DNA from: Alphaproteobacteria bacterium | GTDB lineage: Bacteria; Pseudomonadota; Alphaproteobacteria; SP197 | Length of the DNA stretch: 64,000 nt | NCBI GenBank assembly: GCA_965200495.1 | Contig: CBDAUG010000001.1 | Location: 2,196,885-2,260,884 of the forward strand | Direction of reading: 5' to 3' | Shown: piece after piece, positions 5,559-44,758 of the stretch | Position numbering within the stretch: position 1 is the stretch's first letter | How the letters are laid out: each line of letters begins with the position of its first letter | Translations under genes and position numbers: made by a program | The notes under the pieces: generated by a model | Seen by the model: only the letters and a program-made list of their open reading frames with translations | Told to the model about the DNA's origin: nothing | Database searches by the model: none

Positions 5559-5742
5559 TGCCTGCCAGAGCATTGCGCGGCTGCTGCAGCGGGTGAGGCG
5601 TGGCGTGCACCACAATACCGTTCGCGGGTCCGTCCCGACGGCTTCGAGGCCCTCGCGGAGCGCCGGCAGGGCCTTGTCGCGTGGCGCGACACGACCGACC
5701 GTGCCGGCCGCAGGCTCCGCGACAATCGGGGGCCTGCCTGGC

Positions 5743-7769: not shown

Positions 7770-8366
7770 ATGGCATCCATGGCCCGTCCTGACCTTAGCG
7801 CTGAACGGTCGCAACAGATCCTCGATGCGTTCTCGCGGTGCGTGGCGCGTCTGGGCTTCGATGCCACGTCCCTCGAGGAGGTAGCCGGTGAAGCGGGAGT
7901 CCGCCGTTCGATCATCCGCCACTACATCGGCAATCGCGACGACCTGGTTGCGGCGTTCCTGGATCACCTGGGCATTCGCCTGCAGCGGCAGAACGATGAC
8001 ATGCGCGCCTGGTTCAGCGCCAACCCCGGGGTCGGCGACCTGCCGCACTACCTCTTCGCGGATGTTTCCAACGACGAACTGCCGGTGATCGAGTCGGTGT
8101 ATGCGGCCGGCCGCCGCAACCCGGCGATTGCTTGCCGCCTTGAGGGCTGGCAGCAGGGCTTCGCCGATGCGCTTGAGGATGTGTTGCGCACCTCTCTGCC
8201 CGATGCGGATCAGGAAGACATCGCAGCCGTTTCCCACGGTCTCGCCGCCATCTACAACAACCATCAGTCGATGCTGACCCTTGGAGCACCGCCTCGCTAC
8301 AGCGCGATGGCGCTTGCAGCCGCTGAAATGCTCATCGCCGCACTTGTCACGCGAGCGCGGCCATGA
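7770..8366 (+). CDS. TetR/AcrR-family transcriptional regulator
   Basis: N-terminal HTH (SAERSQQILDAFSRCVARLGFDATSLEEVAGEAGVRRSIIRHYIGNRDDL) and a helical C-terminal domain. Confidence 0.85.
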   Translation: MASMARPDLSAERSQQILDAFSRCVARLGFDATSLEEVAGEAGVRRSIIRHYIGNRDDLVAAFLDHLGIRLQRQNDDMRAWFSANPGVGDLPHYLFADVSNDELPVIESVYAAGRRNPAIACRLEGWQQGFADALEDVLRTSLPDADQEDIAAVSHGLAAIYNNHQSMLTLGAPPRYSAMALAAAEMLIAALVTRARP

Positions 8367-8866
8367 CGCGGCCAACGATGTGTGGCAGCGCTGCCCTGTG
8401 CTGTGACAACCTTGCCGCCCATCGGGACGACCGCCAGGCAGACGTTCTCGACTGGGGGTGCGGGGATGGCGAGGTCGGTGCGCTGCTTTGCGCTCTTGGA
8501 TACCGGACCGTTGATGGTATGGATACCGCGTTCGGCATGCTGGCACGCGCGCGCGAGCGCGGCGTTTATCGTCGGCTCTTCAGCGCCGCATCGCCGGATG
8601 ATCTGCCGGATCGCAGCTACGACGCGGTGGTCGCATCACGCAGCCTCGCAGGTGAGGATGCGTCCCCGGACGTGCTCCACGGTTTCGTCAGGCTGCTGAG
8701 GGCGGGAGGAGTGATGTCCCTTGCGGTGGCGCCCCGAGGCGGGTTGGCGGACGCTTGCCGCAGGATGTGCAGGGCAGGAACCCTGTTGAAGATGGAAGCA
8801 ACCTGGGACAGGCTTCCGGCAACGGGACAGCCGCAGGTGCGGTTTCTGGTTCTTGGACGATTCTAG
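8363..8866 (+). CDS. Small class-I SAM-dependent methyltransferase
   Basis: Motif I VLDWGCGDGEVG. 167 aa. Start overlaps the TetR stop (ATGA). Confidence 0.65.
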   Translation: MTRPTMCGSAALCCDNLAAHRDDRQADVLDWGCGDGEVGALLCALGYRTVDGMDTAFGMLARARERGVYRRLFSAASPDDLPDRSYDAVVASRSLAGEDASPDVLHGFVRLLRAGGVMSLAVAPRGGLADACRRMCRAGTLLKMEATWDRLPATGQPQVRFLVLGRF

Positions 8867-8881
8867 CCGGGGTTATGCAAC

Positions 8882-9847
8882 ATGCAGATCAACATGCGGG
8901 GGCCGGCCGGTCGCTACAATGCGCCCTATGGCGGAATCGCGACATTCCTGCGCCAGGACTACTGCGATGACATTGCCACTCTTGACGCTGACTATGCCAT
9001 TCTCGGCACGCCGACCGACGAGGGATCCCCCTTCATGGGCGGATCGCGTTTTGCCCCGCGTTCCATCCGCGAACATTCGCTGAGGTTCGGTTCGGACGGG
9101 TACTACGACATCCTCACAGACAAGTCTTACCTGGTCGAGGAAACGGCAAACCGGCGTATCGTCGATGTCGGGGACAGCGACGTTCTGGAGACCAATGTCG
9201 CAGGGACATTCGACAACATCACTGCCGATGTCTCGGGCATCCTCGAACGCGGCGCCATGCCGGTCATCATTGGTGGCGATCACTCGGTGACATATCCGGT
9301 GGTGAGGGCGTTCCATGAACCCATGCATGTCATGCACTTTGACGCCCACATGGACTATCGACCCTTCGTTCACGACCTGAGATTCACCAACGGTCATGCC
9401 TTCCGTCACATCAAGCCCATGTCCCATGTGCTGTCGCTGACACAGATCGGCATCCGCAGCCTGCGGAGCGCCCTTCAGGAGTTCATCGATGCGCGCGCCG
9501 AAGGCAGCCACATCGTCACCATGGATGAGATCCGCAGACTCGGGCCTGAGGACTTCGTGCACCAGACCTTCCCGCGAGGCGAAAAGATGTACGTGTCGAT
9601 TGATGTCGATGTCCTTGACATGTCACTTGTGCCGGGCTGTATCTCCGCGGAACCCAACGGCATGCTCTATGCCGAACTGCGTGACATCCTGCGCGTCACG
9701 GCGCGACACATGGACGTCATCGGTTTCGACTTCGTCGAAGTCAATCCCAGGCTCGATGTCGGCACCGGCGTGACGTCCTACCTCGGCGCCCACACCATGG
9801 TCGAATTCCTCGGCGCCATTGCCGAGGCGAAGGCCGCCAAGAGATAG
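8882..9847 (+). CDS. Ureohydrolase, arginase/agmatinase family (agmatinase or guanidino-acid hydrolase-like)
   Basis: Mn-binding motifs IIGGDHSVTYP, HFDAHMDY and SIDVDVLD. 321 aa. Confidence 0.85.
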   Translation: MQINMRGPAGRYNAPYGGIATFLRQDYCDDIATLDADYAILGTPTDEGSPFMGGSRFAPRSIREHSLRFGSDGYYDILTDKSYLVEETANRRIVDVGDSDVLETNVAGTFDNITADVSGILERGAMPVIIGGDHSVTYPVVRAFHEPMHVMHFDAHMDYRPFVHDLRFTNGHAFRHIKPMSHVLSLTQIGIRSLRSALQEFIDARAEGSHIVTMDEIRRLGPEDFVHQTFPRGEKMYVSIDVDVLDMSLVPGCISAEPNGMLYAELRDILRVTARHMDVIGFDFVEVNPRLDVGTGVTSYLGAHTMVEFLGAIAEAKAAKR

Positions 9848-10154
9848 GCACCGCGTCAGATGAATCACGTGGCGATGGAGGCGAAGTGAGGATATCGCCG
9901 GGCACCACCGTCCGCCTGAAGAACGATCCTGGACGTGGCGGAGAATTGCGGAAAGGTGAAAACGTCACCGCCGGCGGGCGCATGGTTGAGGCAAGGTCCA
10001 CAGTGTGGAGGAACGGCAGTTCGCATGCGTCGAACAGTTTTCGCGCATAGATCTCGAAGTCGAACCAGTCTTGAGCGGGTGAGATATACCCGGCCAGTGT
10101 GGCAATTGGATCATCGTCGTGACCGCTTTCGTCGACGTAGCAGACCAATGCCAT
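9741..10154 (-). pseudogene. DUF3800-family protein remnant; N-terminus conserved, remainder degraded
   Basis: MALVCYVDESGHDDDPIATLAGYISPAQDWFDFEIYARKLFDACELPFLHTVDL matches the DUF3800 'Y-x-DESG' N-terminus. Downstream sequence is low-complexity P/S/R-rich and overlaps the agmatinase 3' end. Confidence 0.4.
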
Positions 10155-10279
10155 CAAATGTGCTCCGTGTGAGTCATGGCCACAGCGACAGCCGGACCGC
10201 ACTGAGCGGCCGGCGGGGCATCGCCACCATGTCGTTGTGTGGCGCGGTGATCAGTCCGCAGTCTCGAACAGGTGCAAAC

Positions 10280-10576
10280 TCAAACCGCCATATGCGGCTG
10301 ATAGCGCCGTACTGCAATTCGGTCTTCGTATCTGCGCGCTTGCACGAGATCGTAGGCCGTCTGGCGTCGCAGCCAGAACTCTGCATTGGACCAGCCTGCC
10401 TTTTCGAGGCGGATGGCCATTTCGGGAGAGATCCCCGCGTGACCGTTGACAACCCGGGAAAGAGTATGGCGGGCGACGCCCAGCACCTGTGCCGCTTCGG
10501 TCACGCTCAAACCGAGTGGTTCGAGACAGTTTTCGCGAACACTGCGTCCGGGATGAGGGGGGGCGATCATCGGCAT
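10280..10576 (-). CDS. higA: HigA-family antitoxin (XRE-type HTH)
   Basis: Reads [72 protein letters not shown]. Lies 14 nt downstream of higB. Confidence 0.85.
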
Positions 10577-10590
10577 GCTCGTGGCTCCCG

Positions 10591-10869
10591 TCAGTGGTAG
10601 TCGACCAGGTCGACGTCGTAGGCGTCGCCGTCTTCAAGGCGGAAGGTCATCCGCCAGTTTCCGGAAATCGAGATGCTCCAGTGTCCCTTGAGATGGCCCT
10701 TCAGCAAATGAAGCCGGTAGCCGGGCAGATCAAGGTCGGAGGGCTTGCAGGCATCGTCGAGGTCGGCCAGCGCCAGTGCTCCACGGTCCGAAAGCTCGGG
10801 TCCTACCCTGTTCGCATCTCCACGTTCATACATTCGCTTGAGGCCGCGGTGACGAAAGCTCCGAATCAT
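10591..10869 (-). CDS. higB: HigB-family toxin (RelE/ParE superfamily 'killer' protein)
   Basis: Reads [38 protein letters not shown]…[39 protein letters not shown]. Toxin-first higBA gene order. Confidence 0.85.
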
Positions 10870-10875
10870 GACCAT

Positions 10876-10896
10876 GTGTACCGCATGTCGGTACAC
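10876..10896. promoter_or_regulatory. Palindrome GTGTACCG-catgt-CGGTACAC immediately upstream of higB; candidate HigA/HigBA autoregulatory operator
   Basis: Perfect 8-bp inverted arms within 30 nt of the higB start. An AT-rich promoter-like stretch follows at about 10960–11030. Confidence 0.5.
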
Positions 10897-12596
10897 ATAT
10901 CAACCAAAACCGGCGGGTTCCGCGAGGGTGTGGAGACTTGCGACCTCCTGAAAATGATTCACAGTCTTTGCCAAGAGCTTTTGCCCGCCATAAAATTCAT
11001 GTTGTCAACGATTTATTGGTTTTCTGGCGGGCACCAGTACATCCCGGCGCACAACCGTTCGCGCCGTCTCGATGCCGGCCTCGCCCTCGATGGTGAGCGG
11101 CATCCCGTGCAGCGGCTCGATCCCCTTCTTCAGGCGCTGCGGCGGGACCTCCTCAAGGGCCGAAACGGCCATCATGCGGATGGGCGCGGCACCCGCCGCG
11201 TCCTTCGGGAAGAGCAGGTCCACCGGCGTCGCGCGCAGCGTCAGCCGCGCCGCCCGTTCTCTCGCGCTCGCAGACCGTGACCACGCGCGTGTTCGGGCAG
11301 GCGTGCGCGCGATCCGGGCCAGCGATCCGGCGGACGCTGTCCTTGTCTTCCTGCTAGCGGACGTCGGCGGCGGCAGGTCGCCCGACTGCGTTCACCGCCA
11401 TGCGGGCATGGACCAGGATGCCCGAGGTCGCCTTGCCGCCGCCGGCAGGCTCATCGAGGCCCAGCCCGCCGTCGTATCCTTGATGGCCAGCACCAGCCGC
11501 GGCACCGCTCCACCGTCTGCGCGCAATGCGAGACCGGCATGTGCTCCATCGTCACCACCGCGTTCGACAGCAATCGGCAGGCCACCGTCTGTCTGTTCCG
11601 CATGCCCCGGGAAGATCACCGGCAGACGCTCGCCAGGACGACACCCATCTGCACGATCCGGCTTCTGACCCGGCCGTCGGGATGCGGGCGGCTTGAGCCA
11701 GACTGCGCGGCGCACCCCCGAACGACGCCCCGAGGTGAGTTCCGGACAGCACTTTCATCCCGCCGCCCGGTCGCTCAGGCGATGCGCCTCGATCGGACGC
11801 GACATCCGCTGCATGGAGCGCGTGCACGCCGATCTTCTCACCCTGTGGGCTTCTTAATCCCCACCACCCGGCTCTTGCGGCTGATCTCGATCGCGCCAGC
11901 CACTGTGACAGCGTCGGCACCGGCCGGCGCCGCGGGTTCGACCCCCTGAGGACATCGTCAGGGTCTCCTCGTCACGTGAGACAAGGGCGGCACTGTTGCG
12001 CCGACCGCCCTGCGGCCCTCATGGGATCCGGTGGAGGGTTGCCGGGTGAAAATCCGGCAGAAAGAGAGGATGGCCGCGACTTTTTCCGCGAACCGTGCGC
12101 CGGTCGCCCGGACCTCGGGGCCGGAGTCGTTCCATGGCAAACACATGGCGCGAGCGGATGGCGCGGGGCGACACGACGTCGTGTGTGGCTTCCAGCATCC
12201 GGGCGAAGCGAAGCGCTTCCTCGGCGACCTCGGGGAGAGGCTGATCCACGACGGACTGGAACGGCATCCAGACAGGACCCGGGCTCATCGATTCCACCGC
12301 ACCTTGCGGCGGATCAGGGGAGAACGCCTCGAGGTGCGGCACGATAACCGGGACAAAGTGGCCGGCTCAGGGACCATGCCGTGCCGGGCAGCGGTTCATG
12401 TCCCACTGCAGGCGACCGCTCATGCGCGCCCTTCGGCGGCGACCCCAAGGCGATCGCACGACAGGGGAGGAGATCGACACCCTCATCGCCGCCCGGCATC
12501 CGCCACCCGTGGCCAGGCCAACGGCTCGTCGTCGGGACCTGAAGGACGAAGAGCGCGATTCTTGATCGCGAGACTCACGTCACACCGCCTTCGGGA

Positions 12597-12618
12597 TTGA
12601 TTGACCAGTCAGAAAATC
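12597..12618. promoter_or_regulatory. Operator-like motif ATTGATTGACCAGTCAGAAAAT; 20/22 identical in reverse complement to 20188–20210
   Basis: About 100 nt upstream of the PotD-like SBP gene. Palindromic core TGACCAGTCA. Shared with the amine oxidase operon promoter. Confidence 0.55.
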
Positions 12619-12718
12619 TGGGTGATGCTTTCGGGGTCCGCAAACCAGGTGGCGTGGACTCACATGAAACCCGGGGCCAGCGGGCTGCGGGCAGGTGACA
12701 ATCTGGAGGATCACATCC

Positions 12719-13828
12719 ATGGATATCAGGGATACCATCAAGCGACTTGAAAACAGGGAGTTGAGCCGTCGGGAGCTCGGTCAGGCGATGGCCGCGGTCG
12801 GGCTGGTGTCGACGGTGATGCCGTTGACGGCGGCCCATGCCGAGGATCAGGCGGTCTACTTTACGTGGTCCGGTTATGACGTGCCGGAGCTCTGGCCCGG
12901 CTATGTCGAAAAGCACGGTGTGGAGCCGGATTGTCCGGTCTTCGGTGACGCCGAGGAGGCCTTCACCAAGGTGAGGGCCGGCTTCGTCGTGGATGTCATG
13001 CATCCATGCAGCGGCAATGTGCCACGCTGGCGGCGCGCGGGCGTTCTCCAGCCCATCGACACATCGAGGCTTTCCAACTGGAAGGATGTGGTTCCGGCGC
13101 TCTCCAACATCCAGGATGCCCGGCACGATGGACAGCAGTGGTTCGCTCCTTTCGAGTGGGGGCAGACATCGATCACCTACCGCACGGACATCGTCGACTG
13201 GCAGGGCGAAGAGGAGTCCTGGGGGCTGCTCTGGGACGAGCGCTATGCCGGCAGGCTTTCGATCATCGATGCCGCCGAGGATGCCTGGTGGTGTGCTGCC
13301 ATCTACGCCGGGGTCGACACCGACAATCTGACGGAAGAGGATCTGACAAGGGTTCTCGATGTCTTGAGACAGCAGCGTGATCTCCTGAGGTTTCGCCAGA
13401 GCGACATGACGACGGTGGAACAGGCTCTCGCCTCCGGGGAACTCGTCGCAGCGATGACCTGGAACGATTCGCCCTTGAGACTCATCGGACAAGGCATTCC
13501 GGTGAAGTTCGCCAATGTCAGGGAGGGCGCGCTGACCTGGGTCTGCGGCATGGCGCTGACCAGCAATGCGCCCCACTACGACAAGGCCCATGATCTCATC
13601 GACGCCATGCTGGCGCCTGATGTCGGGGAATATGTGATCATGGAGTTCGGTTATGGTCACTCGAGCGCCGCGGCGTTCGACCGTGTCAGCGATGACGACC
13701 TGGCCGCCCGCGGGCTTTCGAGGGATCCATCCGACATCCTGGACAAGGGCGTCTTCCTGATGGCGCAGTCCGAGGAGATCGAGACCAGGATCAACCGTGA
13801 CTGGGGTGAGATGATCGCCGGTTTCTGA
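12719..13828 (+). CDS. ABC transporter periplasmic substrate-binding protein, PotD/PotF (polyamine/amine) family
   Basis: Tat signal SRRELGQAMAAVGLVSTVMPLTAAHA followed by a PBP2 fold (…WSGYDVPELWPGYV…ITYRTD…). No cognate permease or ATPase is adjacent. Confidence 0.85.
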   Translation: MDIRDTIKRLENRELSRRELGQAMAAVGLVSTVMPLTAAHAEDQAVYFTWSGYDVPELWPGYVEKHGVEPDCPVFGDAEEAFTKVRAGFVVDVMHPCSGNVPRWRRAGVLQPIDTSRLSNWKDVVPALSNIQDARHDGQQWFAPFEWGQTSITYRTDIVDWQGEEESWGLLWDERYAGRLSIIDAAEDAWWCAAIYAGVDTDNLTEEDLTRVLDVLRQQRDLLRFRQSDMTTVEQALASGELVAAMTWNDSPLRLIGQGIPVKFANVREGALTWVCGMALTSNAPHYDKAHDLIDAMLAPDVGEYVIMEFGYGHSSAAAFDRVSDDDLAARGLSRDPSDILDKGVFLMAQSEEIETRINRDWGEMIAGF

Positions 13829-13858: not shown

Positions 13859-13900
13859 GGGAACCGGGACCAGGCTCGGTCCCGGTTCCTGTTTCCTTCT
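13859..13900 (+). terminator. Rho-independent terminator after the SBP gene
   Basis: GGGAACCGGGACC-aggctc-GGTCCCGGTTCC is a perfect 12–13-bp stem, followed by TGTTTCCTTCTTC. Confidence 0.7.
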
Positions 13901-13920: not shown

Positions 13921-14595
13921 ATGCCCCATGGTGCACCCCCGGCTGCGAGTGCGTTGCCAGCGAACCGCCGCCTTGCCGTTCGCCAGGCACGGCGACAGCA
14001 GCTGATCGACGCCACCATCGAATCGATCGCCCGGCGGGGATTCTCGGGCACCACCCTGGAAACCGTCACCAGGGGCGCCCGGCTGTCGCACGGCGTGGTC
14101 AACTTTCATTTCCGCACCAAGGAAGATCTCTACGTCGAGACTCTGGGTCATCTGGCGCGGGAACATTATGAGCTGTGGCGCAGCGCCATGCTGCGTGCCG
14201 GCCCGGACCCGGCGAAACAACTGCAGGCCATCCTGGAGGCGGATTTCGACCGCCGGGTCTGCTCGAAAAAGAAACTTGCGGTCTGGTTCGCCTTCTGGGG
14301 CCAGGCGAAATACCGGCCCGCCTACCTCGAGATCCACCACCGCTTCGATGACGAGAGGTATGTCGAGATCTGCCGGCTGTGCCGGGAACTGGTGTCAAGC
14401 GGCCCCTACGAGGGCGCCGACGCGGACGGGATTGCCCGCAGCATCGAGGCCCTGATCGACGGTCTGTGGCTCAACCTGCTCATGTATCCGCGGGACATCC
14501 GTCGCCAGACCGCGAGAACGGATTGCCTGGCATATCTTGCCACGGCCTTTCCCCATCATTTTGAACGGCCGGCGGCCGGTGGCTGCAAGGCCTGA
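13921..14595 (+). CDS. TetR-family transcriptional regulator (BetI-like)
   Basis: HTH RQQLIDATIESIARRGFSGTTLETVTRGARLSHGVVNFHFRTKEDL. Immediately upstream of the dehydrogenase gene. Confidence 0.85.
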   Translation: MPHGAPPAASALPANRRLAVRQARRQQLIDATIESIARRGFSGTTLETVTRGARLSHGVVNFHFRTKEDLYVETLGHLAREHYELWRSAMLRAGPDPAKQLQAILEADFDRRVCSKKKLAVWFAFWGQAKYRPAYLEIHHRFDDERYVEICRLCRELVSSGPYEGADADGIARSIEALIDGLWLNLLMYPRDIRRQTARTDCLAYLATAFPHHFERPAAGGCKA

Positions 14596-14599
14596 TGCG

Positions 14600-16681
14600 A
14601 TGGCAAGGGATCCGCGTCACGACATCCTGTTCGAGCCGGTGCCCATCGGGCCGTTGATCGCCCGCAACCGGTTCTACCAGGTGCCGCATTGCACAGGCAG
14701 TGGCTGGCAGAGCCCGCACATCCTTGCCGGGCTGCGCGCCATGAAAGCCGAAGGCGGCTGGGCCGTGGTCAACACGGAGTACTGTTCACCCCATCCTTCT
14801 GTTGACGATACGCCCTATCCCATGGCGTCGCTCTGGGATGATCGCGACATCCGGGCGCACGCCCTGATGACCGACCGGGTTCACGCCCATGGTTCGCTTG
14901 CCGGCGTGGAACTGGTTCTGGGTGGCGCAAGGATTGCCAATCACCTGACCCGCCAGGTGCCGCTCGGGGTGGTCAGCATGCCGCTCGCCACAGGAGAGCC
15001 CTTCCAGACGCGGGCCATGGACCATGACGACATCCGCGAGATCAGGCGCTGGCACCGCAATGCCGCGCTGCGCGCCAGGCAGGCAGGCTTCGACATTGTC
15101 TACGTCTATGCCACCCATGACTATCTGCTGTCGCAGTTTCTCTCGCCGGTGCTCAACACGCGTTCGGACGAGTATGGCGGCTCGCTTGCCAACCGGGTGC
15201 GCCTGGTACGCGAACTCATCGAGGATACGAAGGATGCCGTTGGCGGGACCATGGCTGTCGCGGTGAGATTCTCTGCCGAGACCAACGGTGGTGGCGGCGA
15301 TGACGGCACGCCGGTTCCCGGCGAAACCGAAGACATCCTGGGCCTGCTGGGGGATCTGCCAGACCTCTGGGACATCAATGTCAGCGACTATTCCCTCGAA
15401 ATGGGACTGTCGCGCTTTGTTGCTGAAGGGGCCCTCGAATCCTACGTTTCAACCATCCGTTCCCTGACGACGAAGCCCATCGTGACTGTCGGACGTTTCA
15501 CCTCGCCGGATACCATGGCGGCCTGGGTGAGGAAGGGGCTGGTCGACTTCATCGGCGCGGCGCGGCCGTCCATCGCCGATCCCTTCCTGCCCAGGAAGAT
15601 CGAAGAGGGACGCATCGAGGACATCCGCGAATGCATCGGCTGCAACATCTGCTACATGGGCGATGCCCGCGGCGCGCCCATCCGCTGCACCCAGAATCCC
15701 ACCATGAGCGAGGAGTGGCGCCGCGGCTGGCATCCGGAGGTCATCGCCAGCCGGCATTCCGCGTCGCGTGTTCTCGTCATCGGGGCGGGGCCGGCCGGGC
15801 TCGAAGCTGCCCTGTCCCTGGGAAGAAGGGGCTATGACGTCGTTCTTGCCGAGGCCGAGCGCGCACTCGGTGGACGGGTGACGAGGGAGGCCAGGCTTCC
15901 CGGACTCGCCGAATGGGCACGTGTGCGCGATTATCGGGTGACCCAGTTGAACGGGCTTGCCAACGTGGAGATCTATCCTGCGAGCAGGCTGGGTCCCGGA
16001 GATGTCCTCGATGTGGCGGCCGACCATGTCGCTGTGGCGACAGGGGCGCACTGGAGAGCCGATGGTTTCGGTGTCAGCAATCGCGCAGGCATTGAATCCC
16101 TCGGTCCCTGCGAGAGCATCTTCACGCCCGACGACATCATGGCAGGCCGGTTTCCTGGGGGCCGTGTCATCGTCTACGACGATGACCACTACTACATGGG
16201 TACAGTCATGGCCGAGGCATTGCGCGGCCACGGCCTCGAGACCACGCTTGTGACACCCGAAGATGTTGTTTCAGCCTGGGGCGGGCTGACCCTGGACCGC
16301 TGGCGGGCCCGCAGACGGCTGATGGAGACCGGTGTCGGCATTGTCGTTGCCCATGAGCTGGTTTCCTTCGATGGCCGTCGGGCCCGCCTGGCCTGCAGCG
16401 CCGGGGGCGGGGAACGGGATATCGATGCGGACGCGATCGTTCTCGTGACGTCGCGCGCGCCTGATGATGCCCTCTATCAGGCGGTTCGCCGCAGCATGGA
16501 AACAGGGGACAAGGGCGCGCCGACGACGCTGCAGCGGATCGGCGACTGTGATGCGCCGGCTATCATCGCTGCGGCGGTCTACGCCGGACACCGTTACGCC
16601 CGCGAACTCGGCGCCGACGTCGATGCCGACAATCCGCTCAGGCATGACCGGGTCGACGTGGAGGCGAGCCATGACAACTGA
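14600..16681 (+). CDS. Trimethylamine/dimethylamine/histamine dehydrogenase-family iron-sulfur flavoprotein (OYE-like FMN domain + [4Fe-4S] + ADP-binding domain)
   Basis: N-terminal OYE/TIM-barrel region (FYQVPHCTG, SLAGVELVLGGARIANHL). Cluster motif CIGCNICY-x11-C. C-terminal GxGxxG (VLVIGAGPAGLEAAL). About 693 aa. Confidence 0.85.
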   Translation: MARDPRHDILFEPVPIGPLIARNRFYQVPHCTGSGWQSPHILAGLRAMKAEGGWAVVNTEYCSPHPSVDDTPYPMASLWDDRDIRAHALMTDRVHAHGSLAGVELVLGGARIANHLTRQVPLGVVSMPLATGEPFQTRAMDHDDIREIRRWHRNAALRARQAGFDIVYVYATHDYLLSQFLSPVLNTRSDEYGGSLANRVRLVRELIEDTKDAVGGTMAVAVRFSAETNGGGGDDGTPVPGETEDILGLLGDLPDLWDINVSDYSLEMGLSRFVAEGALESYVSTIRSLTTKPIVTVGRFTSPDTMAAWVRKGLVDFIGAARPSIADPFLPRKIEEGRIEDIRECIGCNICYMGDARGAPIRCTQNPTMSEEWRRGWHPEVIASRHSASRVLVIGAGPAGLEAALSLGRRGYDVVLAEAERALGGRVTREARLPGLAEWARVRDYRVTQLNGLANVEIYPASRLGPGDVLDVAADHVAVATGAHWRADGFGVSNRAGIESLGPCESIFTPDDIMAGRFPGGRVIVYDDDHYYMGTVMAEALRGHGLETTLVTPEDVVSAWGGLTLDRWRARRRLMETGVGIVVAHELVSFDGRRARLACSAGGGERDIDADAIVLVTSRAPDDALYQAVRRSMETGDKGAPTTLQRIGDCDAPAIIAAAVYAGHRYARELGADVDADNPLRHDRVDVEASHDN

Positions 16682-17429
16682 CGATATCCTGCCGACAGCC
16701 GAAATCTGGTTTGCCATCGAGGCCCTCGATGGCGGCATCATCCGGTTTCGGGAGGACCACATCGATTCCTATGCCGTTGGTGATATCTGGCTCGTCCGTG
16801 GCCGCGACAGGGACCTTGCCGTCGATACGGGCACAGGCATTGTGGCGCCCGCGCCTCTCGTCGAGGCCGTGGCCGGCAAGCCCGTCACCGCTGTTGCCCT
16901 CAACTGCTACTACGACCATGCCGGCGGCTGGGCGAGTTTTTCCGACCGGGCCTGCCATCCCCTCGACGCGCCGGAACTGCGCGTGCCCACCCGGGAAAGC
17001 GTCGGGGCCGGAACCTATCTCAACCGCAACACGCTGTGGGCGCTGCCCCGTGAAGACTACGACGTGGCCGACTACACGATGACACCGGCCGAGCCGACGC
17101 GTCTTGTCGAGGAGGGATCGCAGTTCGACCTCGGCGACCGCGTTCTTGATGTTCTGCATGTTCCCGGGCGTTCACCAGGCGGCCTGGCGATCTGGGACAA
17201 GGACAGCGGAACGCTCTTCACCAGCGACATGCTCTATGACGGTGACCACGGGCCCGCATGGCCGCCTCCTGAACCGGTTGCCTACTGCGCCAGCCTGCGG
17301 CGCATGCGCGAACTCCCGGTCAGGCGCGTCTGCCCGGGTCACTATGGTGTCATGGGCGCCCGGAAGATGCGCGAGGTCATCGATCGCCAACTCGGCGATC
17401 TCGAACACGCCGCCGGCGGAATCACCTGA
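16671..17429 (+). CDS. MBL-fold metallo-hydrolase
   Basis: Reads …LNCYYDHAGGWASF…HVPGRSPGG…DGDHG. Start overlaps the dehydrogenase stop (ATGA…TGA), indicating translational coupling. The first 69 aa of the listed ORF are in another gene's frame. Confidence 0.75.
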   Translation: MTTDDILPTAEIWFAIEALDGGIIRFREDHIDSYAVGDIWLVRGRDRDLAVDTGTGIVAPAPLVEAVAGKPVTAVALNCYYDHAGGWASFSDRACHPLDAPELRVPTRESVGAGTYLNRNTLWALPREDYDVADYTMTPAEPTRLVEEGSQFDLGDRVLDVLHVPGRSPGGLAIWDKDSGTLFTSDMLYDGDHGPAWPPPEPVAYCASLRRMRELPVRRVCPGHYGVMGARKMREVIDRQLGDLEHAAGGIT

Positions 17430-17705: not shown

Positions 17706-18599
17706 TCAACGAAGACGCCTCCTTCGCGCGGCAATGCGCTCGCGGTGGATGATGTAGAGACCTGCACCAATGATGACACTGGCGCCGATCATCACTTCCC
17801 GGCTTGGCCACTCGCCCCAGATCAGCAATCCCAGCACGATACCCCAGACGAGCCCCGTGTACTCGAACGGGGCGAGCACGGAAGGCGGCGCAATACGAAA
17901 GGCCGCCGTCATGGCGTACTGGGCGAGTCCTGCCATGAGGCCGACGGTGGCGAGGACGAGAGCGTCGTCCCAGTCAGGTGTCTCCCAGACGAAGGCAACC
18001 GCGATGGTGCTGAAGGTGGTGAATGCCAGCGCGGTATAGATTGAAAGCGAGGCGGTGGTGACCACGCGACCCAGCACCCGCGTCATCATCATGCCGATGG
18101 TGAACATGATGTTCGAGCCTACCAGGAGCGCCGCGCCTTCCCATGGAATCTGCCCGCCCGGCCGGACGACGAACAGCACGGCCGCGAATCCGAGAAGCAC
18201 CGCGCTCCAGCGGTGCGGGCCGACCGGTTCCTTCAGAATCCATGCCGAGGCTGCGGTGATGAAGATGGGCGCCGCCATGCCGACAGCAACGGCGTCGGCC
18301 AGGGGCATCAGCGGCAGCGCGAAGACAAAGCTCGCAAAGGCGCAGAACCCGACTGTACCGCGCAGCAGGCTGAGACAGTGAAGCCGCAGGGACATGCGTT
18401 GCAGGCCTCCCTGACGGCTCGCCAGAAGAAAGATCGGTACCATGCCGAAGAGGCTGCGCCAGAAGAGGATGACAAAAACGGGGTAGGTTGCGGCATACCA
18501 CTTGCTGGCCGCGTCGTGCAGCGCCCAGAGACCGACCGCCAGCACGATCAGGGCGATTCCCAACTGCGGACGATCATGACCCTTGAGCGTTGCGTTCAC
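17706..18599 (-). CDS. DMT-superfamily (EamA-like) transporter
   Basis: 10-TM profile with two EamA repeats. 297 aa. Confidence 0.85.
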   Translation of the reverse strand: MNATLKGHDRPQLGIALIVLAVGLWALHDAASKWYAATYPVFVILFWRSLFGMVPIFLLASRQGGLQRMSLRLHCLSLLRGTVGFCAFASFVFALPLMPLADAVAVGMAAPIFITAASAWILKEPVGPHRWSAVLLGFAAVLFVVRPGGQIPWEGAALLVGSNIMFTIGMMMTRVLGRVVTTASLSIYTALAFTTFSTIAVAFVWETPDWDDALVLATVGLMAGLAQYAMTAAFRIAPPSVLAPFEYTGLVWGIVLGLLIWGEWPSREVMIGASVIIGAGLYIIHRERIAARRRRLR

Positions 18600-18790: not shown

Positions 18791-20128
18791 CTATGAGAGA
18801 AGGGTGGCGACCTCCCGGGCGACGGCCCGACCGTTGAGCCAGGCGCCGCCGGCGAGCTGGTACCACGGCGCGGCGGTGGCCTCGCCGGCAAAGAAGATCC
18901 TGTCGGCGACGGGCCGGGCAAGCCCGGCTCGCGCGTCATGATGGCCCGGAAGCGCCGCGGCATAGGCGCCGCGCGTCCAGGGATTGCTGTCCCAGTCTGT
19001 CGCCAGTCCCCTGACGACGTGCTTGTAGACGTCATTGCCGAAAATCGCAGCAAGCTCGCCCAGGGCGAAGTCGATCGCGGCATCGGATCCTGCCGCCGCC
19101 AGTTCGCGTCCGAAACGCCCTCCCGTGAAGCCGATCATGAGATTGAAACCGAAGGGAAAGGTGAGGAAATAGCAGGCCCGTGCCGGCAGCAGGTTCTCCA
19201 CGTGGTAGGTCAGCCAGTTGTTGTCACCCAGGCCGAACCGCTCGCCGTCGAACTCAAGGGCGATTTTCATCAGAAGTCCCATCGGCAAGCGGTCGATGGC
19301 TTCCTGCTTCCACAATGGAAGGGCGGGAGAAAAGGAGATGTCACCGGAGGCCAGCACACCTGTGGAAACGGTGACGATGCAGGCCCGCGCCCTGACGGTG
19401 CCCGCAGGCGTTGCCAGCGCCACGCCGTCACCGCTCCAGTCGATCGCGGTGACCGGAGTCTCAAGCGTGACCGGCAGGCCATATCCGTCGCGGGCGACAA
19501 GCGTGCCGAACCCTTCGCGAACCCTGTAGTAGGCGCCGATGTCGCCGTAGTTCCAGTTGTCAAGGGTGGACAGCTCGTCGAAATCGACAGCGAAATCCAT
19601 GGCTCCCATCCACGTCTGGGACACACCGGAAAACGACATGTCCGGTGGAACAACCGTCGATGCGGCAACATCGAGACCATCGCGCCCTGCCTTGTCGAGA
19701 GCGCCGTTGATGGCGTCCCAGGCACGGTCGTACTCCCCCCGTTCCTGGCCACTCGCCTTGCGGCCGCCGACGAAGAGCGATTCTCCGGCGCCACTGTGAT
19801 CGAGCAGCGTCAAGCCCCACGCGCGCGCCATGGCGATGTAGGGAAGGTCTGCCGGGCCCGTGATCCAGGAACATCCGCGGTCGAAGGGGACACCGAACGT
19901 ATCGCTGTCCGTCCAGGCCCGTCCGCCGATTCGTCCCGCAGCCTCGAGGACGACGACCGACAGTCCCTCCTGCTGCAGGGTGCGGGCCGCGGCGAGACCG
20001 GCCGCGCCGGCTCCCACCACGACGACATCCGGATTGCCGGGAAGACCCAGAGCGCCCGAAGGCAACGCCATCGTGGCTCCCAGACCGGCCAGAAACGACC
20101 GGCGGGAGAATGACTGCGCATGAGTCAT
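18791..20128 (-). CDS. FAD-dependent amine oxidase (flavin monoamine/polyamine oxidase family), Tat-exported
   Basis: Tat signal SRRSFLAGLGATMALP. Dinucleotide fold VVVVGAGAAGLAAARTL…VVVLEAAGRIGGR. C-terminal FFAGEAT. Confidence 0.85.
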   Translation of the reverse strand: MTHAQSFSRRSFLAGLGATMALPSGALGLPGNPDVVVVGAGAAGLAAARTLQQEGLSVVVLEAAGRIGGRAWTDSDTFGVPFDRGCSWITGPADLPYIAMARAWGLTLLDHSGAGESLFVGGRKASGQERGEYDRAWDAINGALDKAGRDGLDVAASTVVPPDMSFSGVSQTWMGAMDFAVDFDELSTLDNWNYGDIGAYYRVREGFGTLVARDGYGLPVTLETPVTAIDWSGDGVALATPAGTVRARACIVTVSTGVLASGDISFSPALPLWKQEAIDRLPMGLLMKIALEFDGERFGLGDNNWLTYHVENLLPARACYFLTFPFGFNLMIGFTGGRFGRELAAAGSDAAIDFALGELAAIFGNDVYKHVVRGLATDWDSNPWTRGAYAAALPGHHDARAGLARPVADRIFFAGEATAAPWYQLAGGAWLNGRAVAREVATLLS

Positions 20129-20187
20129 GGTCGATGAGATTCTCCCGAAGTGTTGCCCGCACGCGCCAACGGGCGAGCATCCTCAAT

Positions 20188-20210
20188 ATTTTCTGACCGG
20201 TCAATCAAAC
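20188..20210. promoter_or_regulatory. Operator-like motif ATTTTCTGACCGGTCAATCAAAC (palindromic core TGACCGGTCA); second copy of the 12597–12618 motif
   Basis: About 60–80 nt upstream of the amine oxidase start (minus strand). 20/22 match to the reverse complement of site 12597–12618. Confidence 0.55.
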
Positions 20211-24034: not shown

Positions 24035-25552
24035 TCAGCCTACCGTGCCTGAATAGGAAGCCTGGATATCGCCACCCTCGCGGAAGTAGAGCCGCGACGC
24101 ATCGCGCAGCGGCTGGAAATCCCAGGGGGTTCGCCTGCCGGTGTCGAGGGCGGCGCCAACCAGACGTCTCGAGGCCTGGCTGCGGCGCACTGCCGCGTCG
24201 AGCGCCGGGATGTCCCAGGTCCTGTCGACGGCCGTTTCCAGTACAGCGCGCACCTGAGCGTGATCAGGGCATCGTGCGAGGTTGCGGCGTTCATCCGGGT
24301 CTGCGTCGAGATCGAAGAGAAGCGGCGGATCAGCGGGAGACGAGATCAGCTTGCAGGGCCCCTTGCGCACCATCACCAACGGCGCCGGCACACCCTCGGC
24401 GGTGTACTCGGCACAGACCAGATCGGACCAGTCATCGTCATTGCCTGAGCTCAGGGGCATGAGCGAGGCGCCGTCAATCGGCGCTGCCAGTTCCGGAAGC
24501 GCGCCGTCGTACGCCACGTCGAGCAGGGTCGGGAGGAGATCGATGTGGGAAACGTTCGCAGCCTGACGGCGTGGGGCAAAGGCAAAGGGTGCATGCACGA
24601 TCAAGGGAACCCGGACCGACCATTCGAAGAAGGACATCTTGAAGAACAGGCCACGCTCGCCGAGTGAATCGCCGTGATCGGAGGTGAAGACGACGAGGGT
24701 GTTGTCCGCCGCGCCGATTTCGTCCAGCGCCGCCAGCAGCCGGCCGACTTTTGCGTCAACATAGCTCGTGACCGCATAGTAGGCGCGGCGCATGCGCACC
24801 ACGTCCGCCTCGCTGATGGCGGCGAGATGACGCCCGGTCAGGAACCAGTGCCGTCGGCTGTGCGGATCGCGCTCATCGGGCGGGATGTCCGGAACACGGG
24901 GCGGATCGACCCTGGCATCGCGGTAGCGATCCCACCAGTCAGGTGGAGCGAGATAGGGATCGTGAGGCGAGATGAATGACGCCGTGAGCGCAAACGGCCG
25001 CCCGTCATTGCTGTCGGCATGTTCGTGCAGCCATCGGACCGCCTCGAATTCCACTTCATCATCATAGGCGATATTGACGCTCCGCCGGTGCGGACCGGCA
25101 TCGAGGACCGCATGCATGCTGTGATACCACTCAAGCCAGCACTCGTCGTCGAGACTCCAGTCCGGCGACCACAGGAAGTCGGCAGGGTAGACATCGGTCG
25201 TGACGCGTTCTTCGTATCCATGGAGCTGGTCGGGGCCGACGAAGTGCATCTTGCCGGCAAGGCAGGTGCGGTAACCGGCACTGCGCAGGTAGTGATGGAT
25301 GGTCGGTGTGGAAGCGGGAAACTCGACGGCATTGTCGTATGCGCCGATTCTCGAAGGCAGACGCCCGCTCAGCATCGAAAACCGCGCCGGCGCACACAGC
25401 GGAAAGTTGCAGTAGGCGTTCTCGAACACCACGCCGTCCCTGGCAAGGCGATCAAGGTGCGGGGTATCCACTCCCGTCCCGCCATAGGCGGACAGCACCT
25501 GCGGCGCGAGTTGATCGGCCATGACAAAAAGGATGTTCGGGCGTTTCGTCAT
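24035..25552 (-). CDS. betC: Choline-sulfatase (type-I sulfatase family)
   Basis: MTKRPNILFVMADQL…; formylglycine motif CAPARFSMLSGR. About 505 aa, no signal peptide, matching the BetC profile. Confidence 0.8.
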   Translation of the reverse strand: MTKRPNILFVMADQLAPQVLSAYGGTGVDTPHLDRLARDGVVFENAYCNFPLCAPARFSMLSGRLPSRIGAYDNAVEFPASTPTIHHYLRSAGYRTCLAGKMHFVGPDQLHGYEERVTTDVYPADFLWSPDWSLDDECWLEWYHSMHAVLDAGPHRRSVNIAYDDEVEFEAVRWLHEHADSNDGRPFALTASFISPHDPYLAPPDWWDRYRDARVDPPRVPDIPPDERDPHSRRHWFLTGRHLAAISEADVVRMRRAYYAVTSYVDAKVGRLLAALDEIGAADNTLVVFTSDHGDSLGERGLFFKMSFFEWSVRVPLIVHAPFAFAPRRQAANVSHIDLLPTLLDVAYDGALPELAAPIDGASLMPLSSGNDDDWSDLVCAEYTAEGVPAPLVMVRKGPCKLISSPADPPLLFDLDADPDERRNLARCPDHAQVRAVLETAVDRTWDIPALDAAVRRSQASRRLVGAALDTGRRTPWDFQPLRDASRLYFREGGDIQASYSGTVG

Positions 25553-43394: not shown

Positions 43395-43585
43395 CTGAAA
43401 CCTGCGGGAGAGACCGGTCTGCGGACCGGCGCCGAAGGTGCAATCTGTCCCGAAATCTCTCAGGCAAAGGGACCGCAGGCGAATGGCTGCTCTGGAGAGA
43501 AGAAGGCGCTGATGCGTCTTCTCGCCGAAGGGGAAAGCCGGCGTTCCGGTGATGCTCTCAGGTTCGGTGACAGAGGGGGCACGGT
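43395..43585 (+). promoter_or_regulatory. Glycine riboswitch (tandem aptamers) in the gcvT leader
   Basis: Aptamer 1: GGGAGAGACC…GCGCCGAAGGTGCAA…CTCTCAGGCAAAGGGAC. Aptamer 2: CTCTGGAGAG…TCGCCGAAGGGGAAAGCCGG…CTCTCAGGTTCGGTGACAG. Followed by a GGGGGC…GCCCCC hairpin. Confidence 0.8.
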
Positions 43586-43627
43586 GTGCATCTGCGCGCG
43601 CCCCCTGCAACGACCGGGACAGATTCC

Positions 43628-44758
43628 GTGACCCTGGATGACACTCTCCTCGCAACCCCGCTTGATGGATTCCACCGCGAACTCGGAGCCCGCATGGTTC
43701 CCTTTGCCGGCTATGCCATGCCGCTGCAGTACGCGACCGGCATTCTTGCCGAGCACCGGCACACGCGCAGTCTCGCCAGCCTCTTTGATGTTTCCCACAT
43801 GGGCCAGGTCCGCCTTTCGGCCAGGCCCGGAGCGTCCATGGAGAGTGTGGCCCGGGCGCTCGAGCGCCTGGTGGCGGCCGATATCGTCGGTCTTGGCAAC
43901 GGAAGACAGCGTTACACCCAGTTCACCAACGGCACCGGCGGCATCCTCGACGATCTGATGGTGACCTCGCTCGGCGATCATCTGTGGCTGGTGGTGAACG
44001 CATCCCGCAAGCATGATGACGTCGAACGCCTGAGGGTGCTGATCGGCGAGGAGTGCGATATCGAGTTTCTGGAGACAAGGGCTCTTGTCGCCCTGCAGGG
44101 ACCGGCTGCCGTGGCGGCCTTCGCGCCGATCGTTCCGCAATCGCAGGGCCTTTCCTTCATGCAGGCGGCATTGTGGTCCCATGAGGGCGAGACGCTCATG
44201 GTCAGCCGATCAGGATACACCGGGGAGGACGGCGTCGAGGTATCGGTTTCGTCGCGTGGTGTTGAATCCCTGGTCCGGCGTCTTCTTGCCAGCGACGATG
44301 TCAGGCCGGCCGGGCTCGGCGCGCGCGACAGCCTGCGCCTGGAGGCCGGCCTGTGTCTCCACGGTCACGATATCGATGCCACGACGACTCCTGTCGAGGC
44401 CGGACTCGCCTGGTCGATTCACAAGCGGCGGCGTCGTGAGGGTGGTTTCCCCGGCGCCGACGTCATTGTCTCGCAATTGCGTGACGGCCCGCCGAGGAGC
44501 CGGGTCGGTCTGGTTCCAAGGGAACGCGCTCCGGTGAGAGAGGGAGCAGCCATCCGCTCTGCATCGTCGGGCAGGCCTCTCGGGACCGTGACGAGCGGCG
44601 CCTTCGGTCCGACGGCGCAAGGGCCGGTTGCCATGGGCTACGTGGCCAGCGAAGAGGCCGCAACAGGTACTGTGGTCGAGGTCGAAAGACGCGGTTCATG
44701 GGTGGGGGCTGAAATCCGGTCACTGCCTTTCGTGTCGCACCGCTATCACCGATCATGA
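43628..44758 (+). CDS. gcvT: Glycine cleavage system aminomethyltransferase GcvT
   Basis: …TPLDGFHRELGARMVPFAGYAMPLQY… GTG start chosen. The upstream part of the listed ORF overlaps the riboswitch. Confidence 0.85.
   Translation: MTLDDTLLATPLDGFHRELGARMVPFAGYAMPLQYATGILAEHRHTRSLASLFDVSHMGQVRLSARPGASMESVARALERLVAADIVGLGNGRQRYTQFTNGTGGILDDLMVTSLGDHLWLVVNASRKHDDVERLRVLIGEECDIEFLETRALVALQGPAAVAAFAPIVPQSQGLSFMQAALWSHEGETLMVSRSGYTGEDGVEVSVSSRGVESLVRRLLASDDVRPAGLGARDSLRLEAGLCLHGHDIDATTTPVEAGLAWSIHKRRRREGGFPGADVIVSQLRDGPPRSRVGLVPRERAPVREGAAIRSASSGRPLGTVTSGAFGPTAQGPVAMGYVASEEAATGTVVEVERRGSWVGAEIRSLPFVSHRYHRS

Follow-up and report, generated by a model that had tools for sequence, protein, structure and literature searches.

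Two copies of a 22-bp motif in the 64-kb stretch of DNA analysed here (the window) are probably operators of a BetI-like TetR repressor encoded at 13921-14595. One copy stands before the gene of a PotD/PotF-like solute-binding protein (SBP) and the other before that of a flavin amine oxidase, and 7.5 kb separates the two promoters. The regulon of amine uptake and oxidation genes to which they point is likely previously undescribed and ordinary in kind; searches of full-text literature turned up no account of it. Its regulator would be an uncharacterised member of the BetI-like branch of TetR repressors that follows standard TetR logic. The features concerned, in window coordinates, are as follows.

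12596-12617, plus strand: site 1, operator-like motif ATTGATTGACCAGTCAGAAAAT; 37.3 bits
12601-12606, plus strand: putative -35-like hexamer TTGACC within site 1, read from the sequence
12602-12611, plus strand: dyad core of site 1, TGACCAGTCA, one change from a perfect dyad
12624-12629, plus strand: -10-like hexamer GATGCT, 17 bp past TTGACC, a spacing that recurs at site 2
12630-12718, plus strand: SBP leader, about 90 nt up to the start codon, with ribosome-binding site GGAGGA at 12706-12711
12719-13828, plus strand: PotD/PotF-like periplasmic SBP with an SRR-containing signal-like N-terminus
13860-13889, plus strand: 12-bp perfect hairpin GGAACCGGGACC-N6-GGTCCCGGTTCC, then a T-rich tract, between SBP and TetR
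13921-14595, plus strand: TetR-family regulator with a BetI-type C-terminal domain, the candidate repressor, after a 92-bp gap from SBP
14600-16681, plus strand: histamine/trimethylamine-dehydrogenase-family flavoprotein, starting 4 bp past the TetR stop
16464-17429 (ORF limits), plus strand: metallo-beta-lactamase-fold (MBL) protein, real start probably near 16.68 kb
17706-18599, minus strand: EamA-type transporter, downstream of the amine oxidase
18791-20128, minus strand: flavin amine oxidase with a twin-arginine signal-like N-terminus (SRRSFLAG)
20176-20181, minus strand: -10-like GATGCT of the oxidase promoter
20188-20209, minus strand: site 2, TTTGATTGACCGGTCAGAAAAT; 35.4 bits
20194-20203, minus strand: perfect dyad core of site 2, TGACCGGTCA
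20199-20204, minus strand: -35-like TTGACC of site 2

The two sites and their promoters

The motif at site 1 is real, although the first-pass annotation had placed it one base off, at 12597-12618 in place of 12596-12617. The 20/22 match that it described between the SBP and amine oxidase promoters was reproduced: against the reverse complement of site 1, site 2 differs only at the central C/T and at the last base. On the forward strand site 2 reads ATTTTCTGACCGGTCAATCAAA(C) at 20188-20209(10), and ATTTTCTGACCGGTCAATCAAAC at 20188-20210. The opposite orientation ascribed to the pair is true of the chromosome, on which the copies are inverted, but not of the genes, since both copies share one orientation relative to their own downstream gene. 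In the gene direction each reads (A/T)TTGATTGACC(A/G)GTCAGAAAAT, followed by six variable bases and GATGCT. The likeness of the sites extends past the 22 bp, with GATGCT at equal spacing downstream (12624-12629 and 20176-20181), and the ~20 bp upstream of the motif can likewise be aligned with the promoter of relatives. Site 1 lies 101 nt before the SBP ATG and site 2 lies 59 nt before the oxidase ATG.

Short palindromes do arise randomly, and the 10-mer core alone occurred at least twice in 4 of 100 shuffles, as would suit a chance similarity of two A+T-rich patches in G+C-rich intergenic DNA. The 22-mer with up to three mismatches, in contrast, gave 0 matches in each of 100 dinucleotide-preserving shuffles, and the same search of the 64-kb window returned sites 1 and 2 with no third copy. 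A weight-matrix scan of the window scored the two sites at 37.3 and 35.4 bits and the runner-up position at 10 bits. The motif also recurs across dozens of orthologous loci. The shuffles, together with the motif matches at 80 TetR-orthologue loci described below, refute chance similarity, to which we assign a next to negligible probability.

At both sites TTGACC is followed, after a 17-bp spacer, by a -10-like hexamer whose second base is A and whose sixth is T, and the region of the dyad TGACCGGTCA overlies the -35-like element and the spacer. TTGACC-N17-GATGCT agrees with TTGACA/TATAAT at 8 of 12 positions, short of 9 of 12 with 16-18 bp spacing, and a strict sigma-70 consensus scan called no promoter at either site. 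Because of this 8/12 agreement and the empty scan, the promoter assignment and the overlap with the -35 element are put forward as putative. Alphaproteobacterial -10 boxes are weakly conserved, and a failed consensus scan does not exclude a promoter.

The leader of the SBP transcript is 82% identical among nine close relatives, which is about the level of four-fold degenerate sites (79%). An Rfam scan of 12400-12800 found no leader match, the single match being at chance level (E 1.4), and RNAalifold on 12 leaders gave near-zero covariation (-0.24 kcal/mol; 1 compensatory pair in 27). With no Rfam match, almost no covariation and conservation at the synonymous level, a riboswitch in the leader was set aside as unsupported. 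The leader contains the hairpins GTCCGC-N-GCGGAC and CCCGG-N-CCGGG.

The interval 9848-12596 is a lineage-specific 2.75-kb segment with little coding signal. Its place in L001-L009 is taken by a minus-strand gene for a 735-aa S15/CocE-type peptidase, and the window becomes homologous to L001 again precisely at the operator's first base (12597). A search of a plasmid collection gave no match to 9848-12596; only short stretches matched, at 77-81%, all of them in the dehydrogenase gene. Inside the segment a HigB-like toxin gene (10591-10896, minus strand; PF05015, E 2e-16) adjoins an HTH_3 antitoxin-like gene (10280-10576), and a weak DUF3800-like fragment lies at 9741-10202. The reading of 9935-12600 as a decayed S15 peptidase was rejected, with tblastn returning only marginal fragments of 20-31 aa at 12551-12701 that overlap the promoter, and the segment, in which the HigB/HigA pair lies, is unrelated DNA. 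A resemblance of 12031-12600 to part of a group II intron reverse transcriptase found no confirmation in Pfam.

The motif at loci of TetR orthologues

Homologues of the TetR protein numbered 474 at E<1e-20, none of them identical to the window's protein. The comparison covered 80 loci with TetR orthologues (47-92% protein identity), mostly from Alphaproteobacteria and drawn from a 27-homologue alignment. Scanned for the window's motif with mismatches allowed, most of the 80 loci proved to contain it, nearly always on the TetR strand. With a weight matrix at a threshold of at least 14 bits, 132 matches were obtained in 66 of 81 sequences as compared with 4 in shuffled DNA. Sites of at least 20 bits were present in 57 of the 80 loci and sites of at least 14 bits in 65, down to about 50% TetR identity. 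The loci that had no site are mostly truncated contigs and the rest are the most distant orthologues; several of the most distant loci have symmetric variants, such as CATTGATTGAACGTTCAATCAATG in L069.

All ORFs of the loci were clustered and the clusters annotated to define gene types. Of 79 strong sites, 76 lie just upstream of five gene types in the motif orientation: the SBP (57), TetR (9), a dehydrogenase paralogue (5), the amine oxidase (4) and a methyltransferase (1). In minimal loci, among them L016, L024, L028, L029, L035, L036, L045 and L053, the site is found directly before the TetR gene. The gene on the far side of the site is often divergent and encodes a cupin, a Rieske oxygenase, an amine oxidase or an S15 peptidase. 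A matrix-independent pattern, TGAnTGAnnnnTCA, occurs at 2.03/kb near SBP starts versus 0.062/kb elsewhere, a 33-fold enrichment measured over the 70 loci that do not belong to the window's clade; of these, 47 contain an SBP gene, and 41 of the 47 have the pattern.

Among nine close relatives the operator 21-mer is 95% identical, versus 79% for SBP four-fold degenerate sites and 44% for the upstream 60 bp. The conserved motif positions are T2 G3 A4, T6 G7 A8, C10, T13 C14 A15 G16 A17 and A19.

The arrangement of operators varies among the loci. More distant relatives have tandem operators 43-45 bp apart (about four helical turns) in a divergent control region, at 5608/5653 in L011, 1734/1777 in L019, 606/650 in L022, 5601/5645 in L027, 9839/9883 in L028 and 5728/5773 in L078; the window's clade has one per promoter. 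In L005 (8679-13032) and L008 (6343-10687) the whole module of operator, SBP and TetR is tandemly duplicated, with a high-scoring operator in each copy.

An exact-pattern scan of metagenome contigs gave 34 matches, of which 11 adjoin genes of the system and 4 adjoin other TetR-like genes. The remaining 19 are mostly on low-G+C or short contigs or inside long ORFs. Chance would yield ~10-20 matches if the collection holds ~5e11 bases, a size that is a rough estimate, and these 19 matches away from recognisable system genes are compatible with chance and were treated as such. An exact motif was also observed near more distant members of the TetR family, ~50 bp from the start of the gene (L088 4816, L096 5219, L112 6199 and L100 1679), and the products of these genes match the profile at E 1e-9 to 1e-24; the operator type may be shared by further TetR paralogues.

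The TetR protein and its gene neighbourhood

The TetR protein (224 aa) has the architecture of its family, with PF00440 at residues 28-73 and PF13977 at residues 97-210. All of its PDB matches are TetR-family proteins, and the dyad upstream of the SBP-TetR genes provides the operator-like site near the regulator's own operon that is typical of the family. Residues of the helix-turn-helix and recognition helix (S56, H57, G58 and others) are invariant across the orthologue alignment. The best NCBIfam models are two BetI equivalogs, TIGR03384 and NF001978, with scores below the cut-offs (120.3 bits versus 201.3, and 114.7 versus 118), and the protein is 29% identical to E. coli BetI over the whole length. 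Linkage to betA, betB and betT (or betC), as expected of BetI, was not found; the neighbours are the SBP, a HADH-like dehydrogenase, the MBL protein and the amine oxidase. Because the scores fall below the cut-offs and the surrounding genes serve amine uptake and oxidation instead of being bet genes, we classify the protein as a BetI paralogue and not as BetI.

The predicted operator resembles the BetI box in part, being a dyad over a putative -35 box with the spacing TGA-N4-TCA. E. coli BetI has one binding site in the betI-betT spacer (PMC5934670), and R. pomeroyi BetI1 protects a region with ATTGACG*CGTCAAT over the -35 box (PMC12442346). The E. coli spacer contains ATTGATTGGACGTTCAAT, and the left arm of our motif, ATTGATTG, is identical to the left arm there. 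The right arm is TCAGAAAAT, that is TCAGAwA, versus TCAAT in the betI box (an ATTGA-N-TCAAT-type palindrome over the -35 box), and for this reason the window's site, unlike the BetI box, lacks full symmetry and always faces its gene the same way. The conserved motif positions make up two half-sites ~11 bp apart, which is the expectation for a single TetR dimer.

The choline-responsive BetI proteins of E. coli, S. meliloti and R. pomeroyi (BetI1) have the same TetR_N + PF13977 architecture as the window's TetR, and in both systems the regulator gene lies beside the regulated operon, here probably inside it. Unlike BetI, the window's TetR is accompanied by a PotD/F-like SBP or an ABC importer, histamine-dehydrogenase-family enzymes and a flavin amine oxidase, and its effector is probably not choline. 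TetR-tetO, QacR-IR1 and AguR are likewise small-molecule-responsive repressors with a ~20-bp palindromic operator in the adjacent catabolic or transport promoter and with autoregulation, and AguR, of the Pseudomonas agmatine operon, is a TetR-type regulator of an amine pathway. They belong to other TetR subfamilies whose operator sequences are unrelated to the window's motif, and unlike these generic pairs the window's operator type would serve at least two promoters and appears to have spread by promoter-cassette copying.

The neighbouring products were assigned at the level of families. Against the PotD/PotF equivalogs the SBP scored 97.5 bits versus 582 and 84.2 bits versus 636, below the cut-offs, and its likeness to PotD/PotF is one of family only. 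In the window's clade the SBP gene directly precedes TetR, whereas in ~50 more distant loci genes for two permeases and an ATPase separate the two; the window's SBP is therefore an orphan binding protein. Alignments of the dehydrogenase to histamine dehydrogenase 3K30 (E 9e-203, 679 bits, residues 27-699) and to trimethylamine dehydrogenase (E 2.5e-155) span the full length, and the protein contains the Oxidored_FMN and Pyr_redox_2 domains expected of the histamine/trimethylamine dehydrogenase family, the architecture of histamine dehydrogenase (PDB 3K30, 6DE6) and trimethylamine dehydrogenase (2TMD). The MBL gene comes after the dehydrogenase in 18 loci.

Relatives of the window differ from the histamine dehydrogenase case in carrying up to four tandem dehydrogenase paralogues, which suggests a range of amines and not histamine alone. 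Two to four such paralogues were observed downstream of TetR in L017, L019, L024, L027, L038, L046, L054 and L062. Ruegeria-type loci have nearby genes for a Rieske oxygenase, a DMGDH-like enzyme, GcvT, a class-III aminotransferase and a methyltransferase, some with weaker sites of their own. The loci with dehydrogenase paralogues and the Ruegeria-type gene sets suggest a broad amine/methylamine catabolic island.

The hairpin between SBP and TetR is kept as a hairpin in L001-L010, with altered sequence in L010. A terminator scan of the SBP-TetR gap called nothing, so that the hairpin is given from sequence reading and RNAfold, and neither an operator nor a promoter was found in the gap. The hairpin might act on the SBP:TetR expression ratio, either by terminating part of the transcripts or by stabilising mRNA, and it could end transcription ahead of TetR and the dehydrogenase or reduce the read-through that reaches them. 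Since a conserved strong hairpin intervenes, co-transcription of TetR and the dehydrogenase from site 1 is presumptive.

Further gene sets were observed in the window. Upstream, 7770-9847 on the plus strand holds a second TetR-family gene (7770-8366), a methyltransferase gene (8363-8866) and an arginase-family gene (8882-9847), all kept in the nine closest relatives. A choline-sulfatase-like gene with Sulfatase and Choline_sulf_C domains (24035-25552, minus strand) lies 4 kb beyond site 2, with no motif nearby. Tandem glycine riboswitch aptamers (RF00504; 73 and 44 bits) at 43395-43583 on the plus strand stand directly 5' of the ORF 43586-44758.

Cassette duplication and the proposed regulon

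The flanks of the two sites had been taken for otherwise unrelated intergenic DNA. That description has to be abandoned, as the oxidase copy duplicates the whole SBP promoter-leader cassette, and on comparative grounds the oxidase site is best read as a lineage-specific, decayed duplicate of it. In L011, L012, L019, L020 and L078 the oxidase gene is divergent from the SBP operon with the operator region in common. In the window's clade the oxidase gene is located downstream of the MBL gene, and in L001, L002, L004, L005, L008 and L009 it begins ~47 bp past a small membrane-protein ORF with no operator. The gap before the oxidase gene is occupied, in the window as in L006 and L007, by a copied SBP promoter-leader cassette. 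The L007 copy can be aligned over a stretch that begins ~60 bp before the operator and takes in the complete leader with its ribosome-binding site, whereas ~24 nt of leader are lost in L006 and ~57 nt in the window. The 22-mer is the best preserved part of the duplicated cassette, and an operator that stays near-intact while the leader decays strengthens the case for selection on the operator. We propose that the cassette was copied before the oxidase gene in the lineage of the window, L006 and L007, which would have restored the linkage seen in distant relatives that have a divergent oxidase at the same operator region.

The copied unit could be a portable ~185 bp promoter-operator-leader cassette in which the leader is a second, RNA-level control acting with the TetR operator, although we consider this unlikely. 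If true, the leader would be, for example, an amine- or translation-responsive element outside any Rfam family.

Could the shared sequence be no more than a copied promoter core, consisting of -35, spacer and -10 from a recent duplication, without a repressor site? The two copies are oriented alike relative to their genes and have common -35-like and -10-like hexamers, and in L006 and L007 they lie inside a longer paralogous cassette of ~185 bp, as such a copy would. Yet the dyad is kept before SBP and TetR genes where TetR is only ~50-65% identical and the flanks are unalignable, the motif often occurs as two tandem copies 44-45 bp apart, and the most conserved positions are those of the symmetric TGA/TCA arms rather than of the -35 hexamer. 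The window's oxidase leader has lost ~57 nt and still the 21-mer is 20/21 identical. A bare promoter core is on this evidence very improbable. The sites could also be operators of another regulator, either the TetR-family protein at 7770-8366 or an unlinked factor, to which the BetI-like TetR is a mere neighbour; the close clade does retain that second TetR_N-containing gene, which in the window lies 4.2 kb before site 1. It is, however, present in just nine loci (cluster c34) and cannot explain the distribution of a motif that accompanies the BetI-like TetR in at least 57. The neighbourhood is without any other conserved regulator, and the site has the TGA-N4-TCA spacing of boxes bound by BetI proteins. 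Control by a different regulator is thus highly improbable.

The reading of the two sites as operators of the BetI-like TetR at 13921-14595 is favoured because the motif co-occurs with TetR orthologues, the protein is itself a paralogue of BetI and the site has the TGA-N4-TCA spacing of the BetI box. Phylogenetic footprinting (57 of 80 loci, 76 of 79 sites) supports the first-pass proposal that a single regulator controls both units, and the choice of this TetR gains from a motif that travels with the orthologues and sometimes stands directly before the TetR gene. The proposed regulon of SBP, dehydrogenase and oxidase is supported in that the motif does precede this gene set. Two members need qualification: the dehydrogenase would join presumptively, by way of site 1, and membership of the oxidase is lineage-specific, since the six close relatives named above have no site before the oxidase gene.

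The following scheme, in which operator binding, repression, promoter positions, operon structure and effector are all inferred, would account for these features. In the absence of effector a TetR dimer would sit on the half-sites yTGAnTGAnC and RnTCAGAwA and block RNA polymerase at two promoters, the dyad being built into each promoter over the -35 hexamer and most of the spacer. Transcripts from the SBP promoter probably continue beyond the hairpin into the genes of TetR, the histamine-dehydrogenase-like enzyme and the MBL protein, and such read-through into TetR would make the system autoregulated. The second repressed promoter would be that of the amine oxidase (-EamA). Repression would be lifted once the BetI-type ligand domain binds an imported amine or a catabolic intermediate.

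These results supply a concrete predicted operator and regulon for a BetI paralogue with a wide distribution among marine and soil Alphaproteobacteria. The predicted regulon joins a PotD/F-type importer, histamine-dehydrogenase-family enzymes and a periplasmic flavin amine oxidase in one amine-catabolic unit. With the consensus yTGAnTGAnCRnTCAGAwA the regulon can be annotated in other genomes and in metagenomes, and repressor and operator together form a candidate amine biosensor. The oxidase site would provide an example of regulon rewiring through the copying of a promoter-operator cassette.
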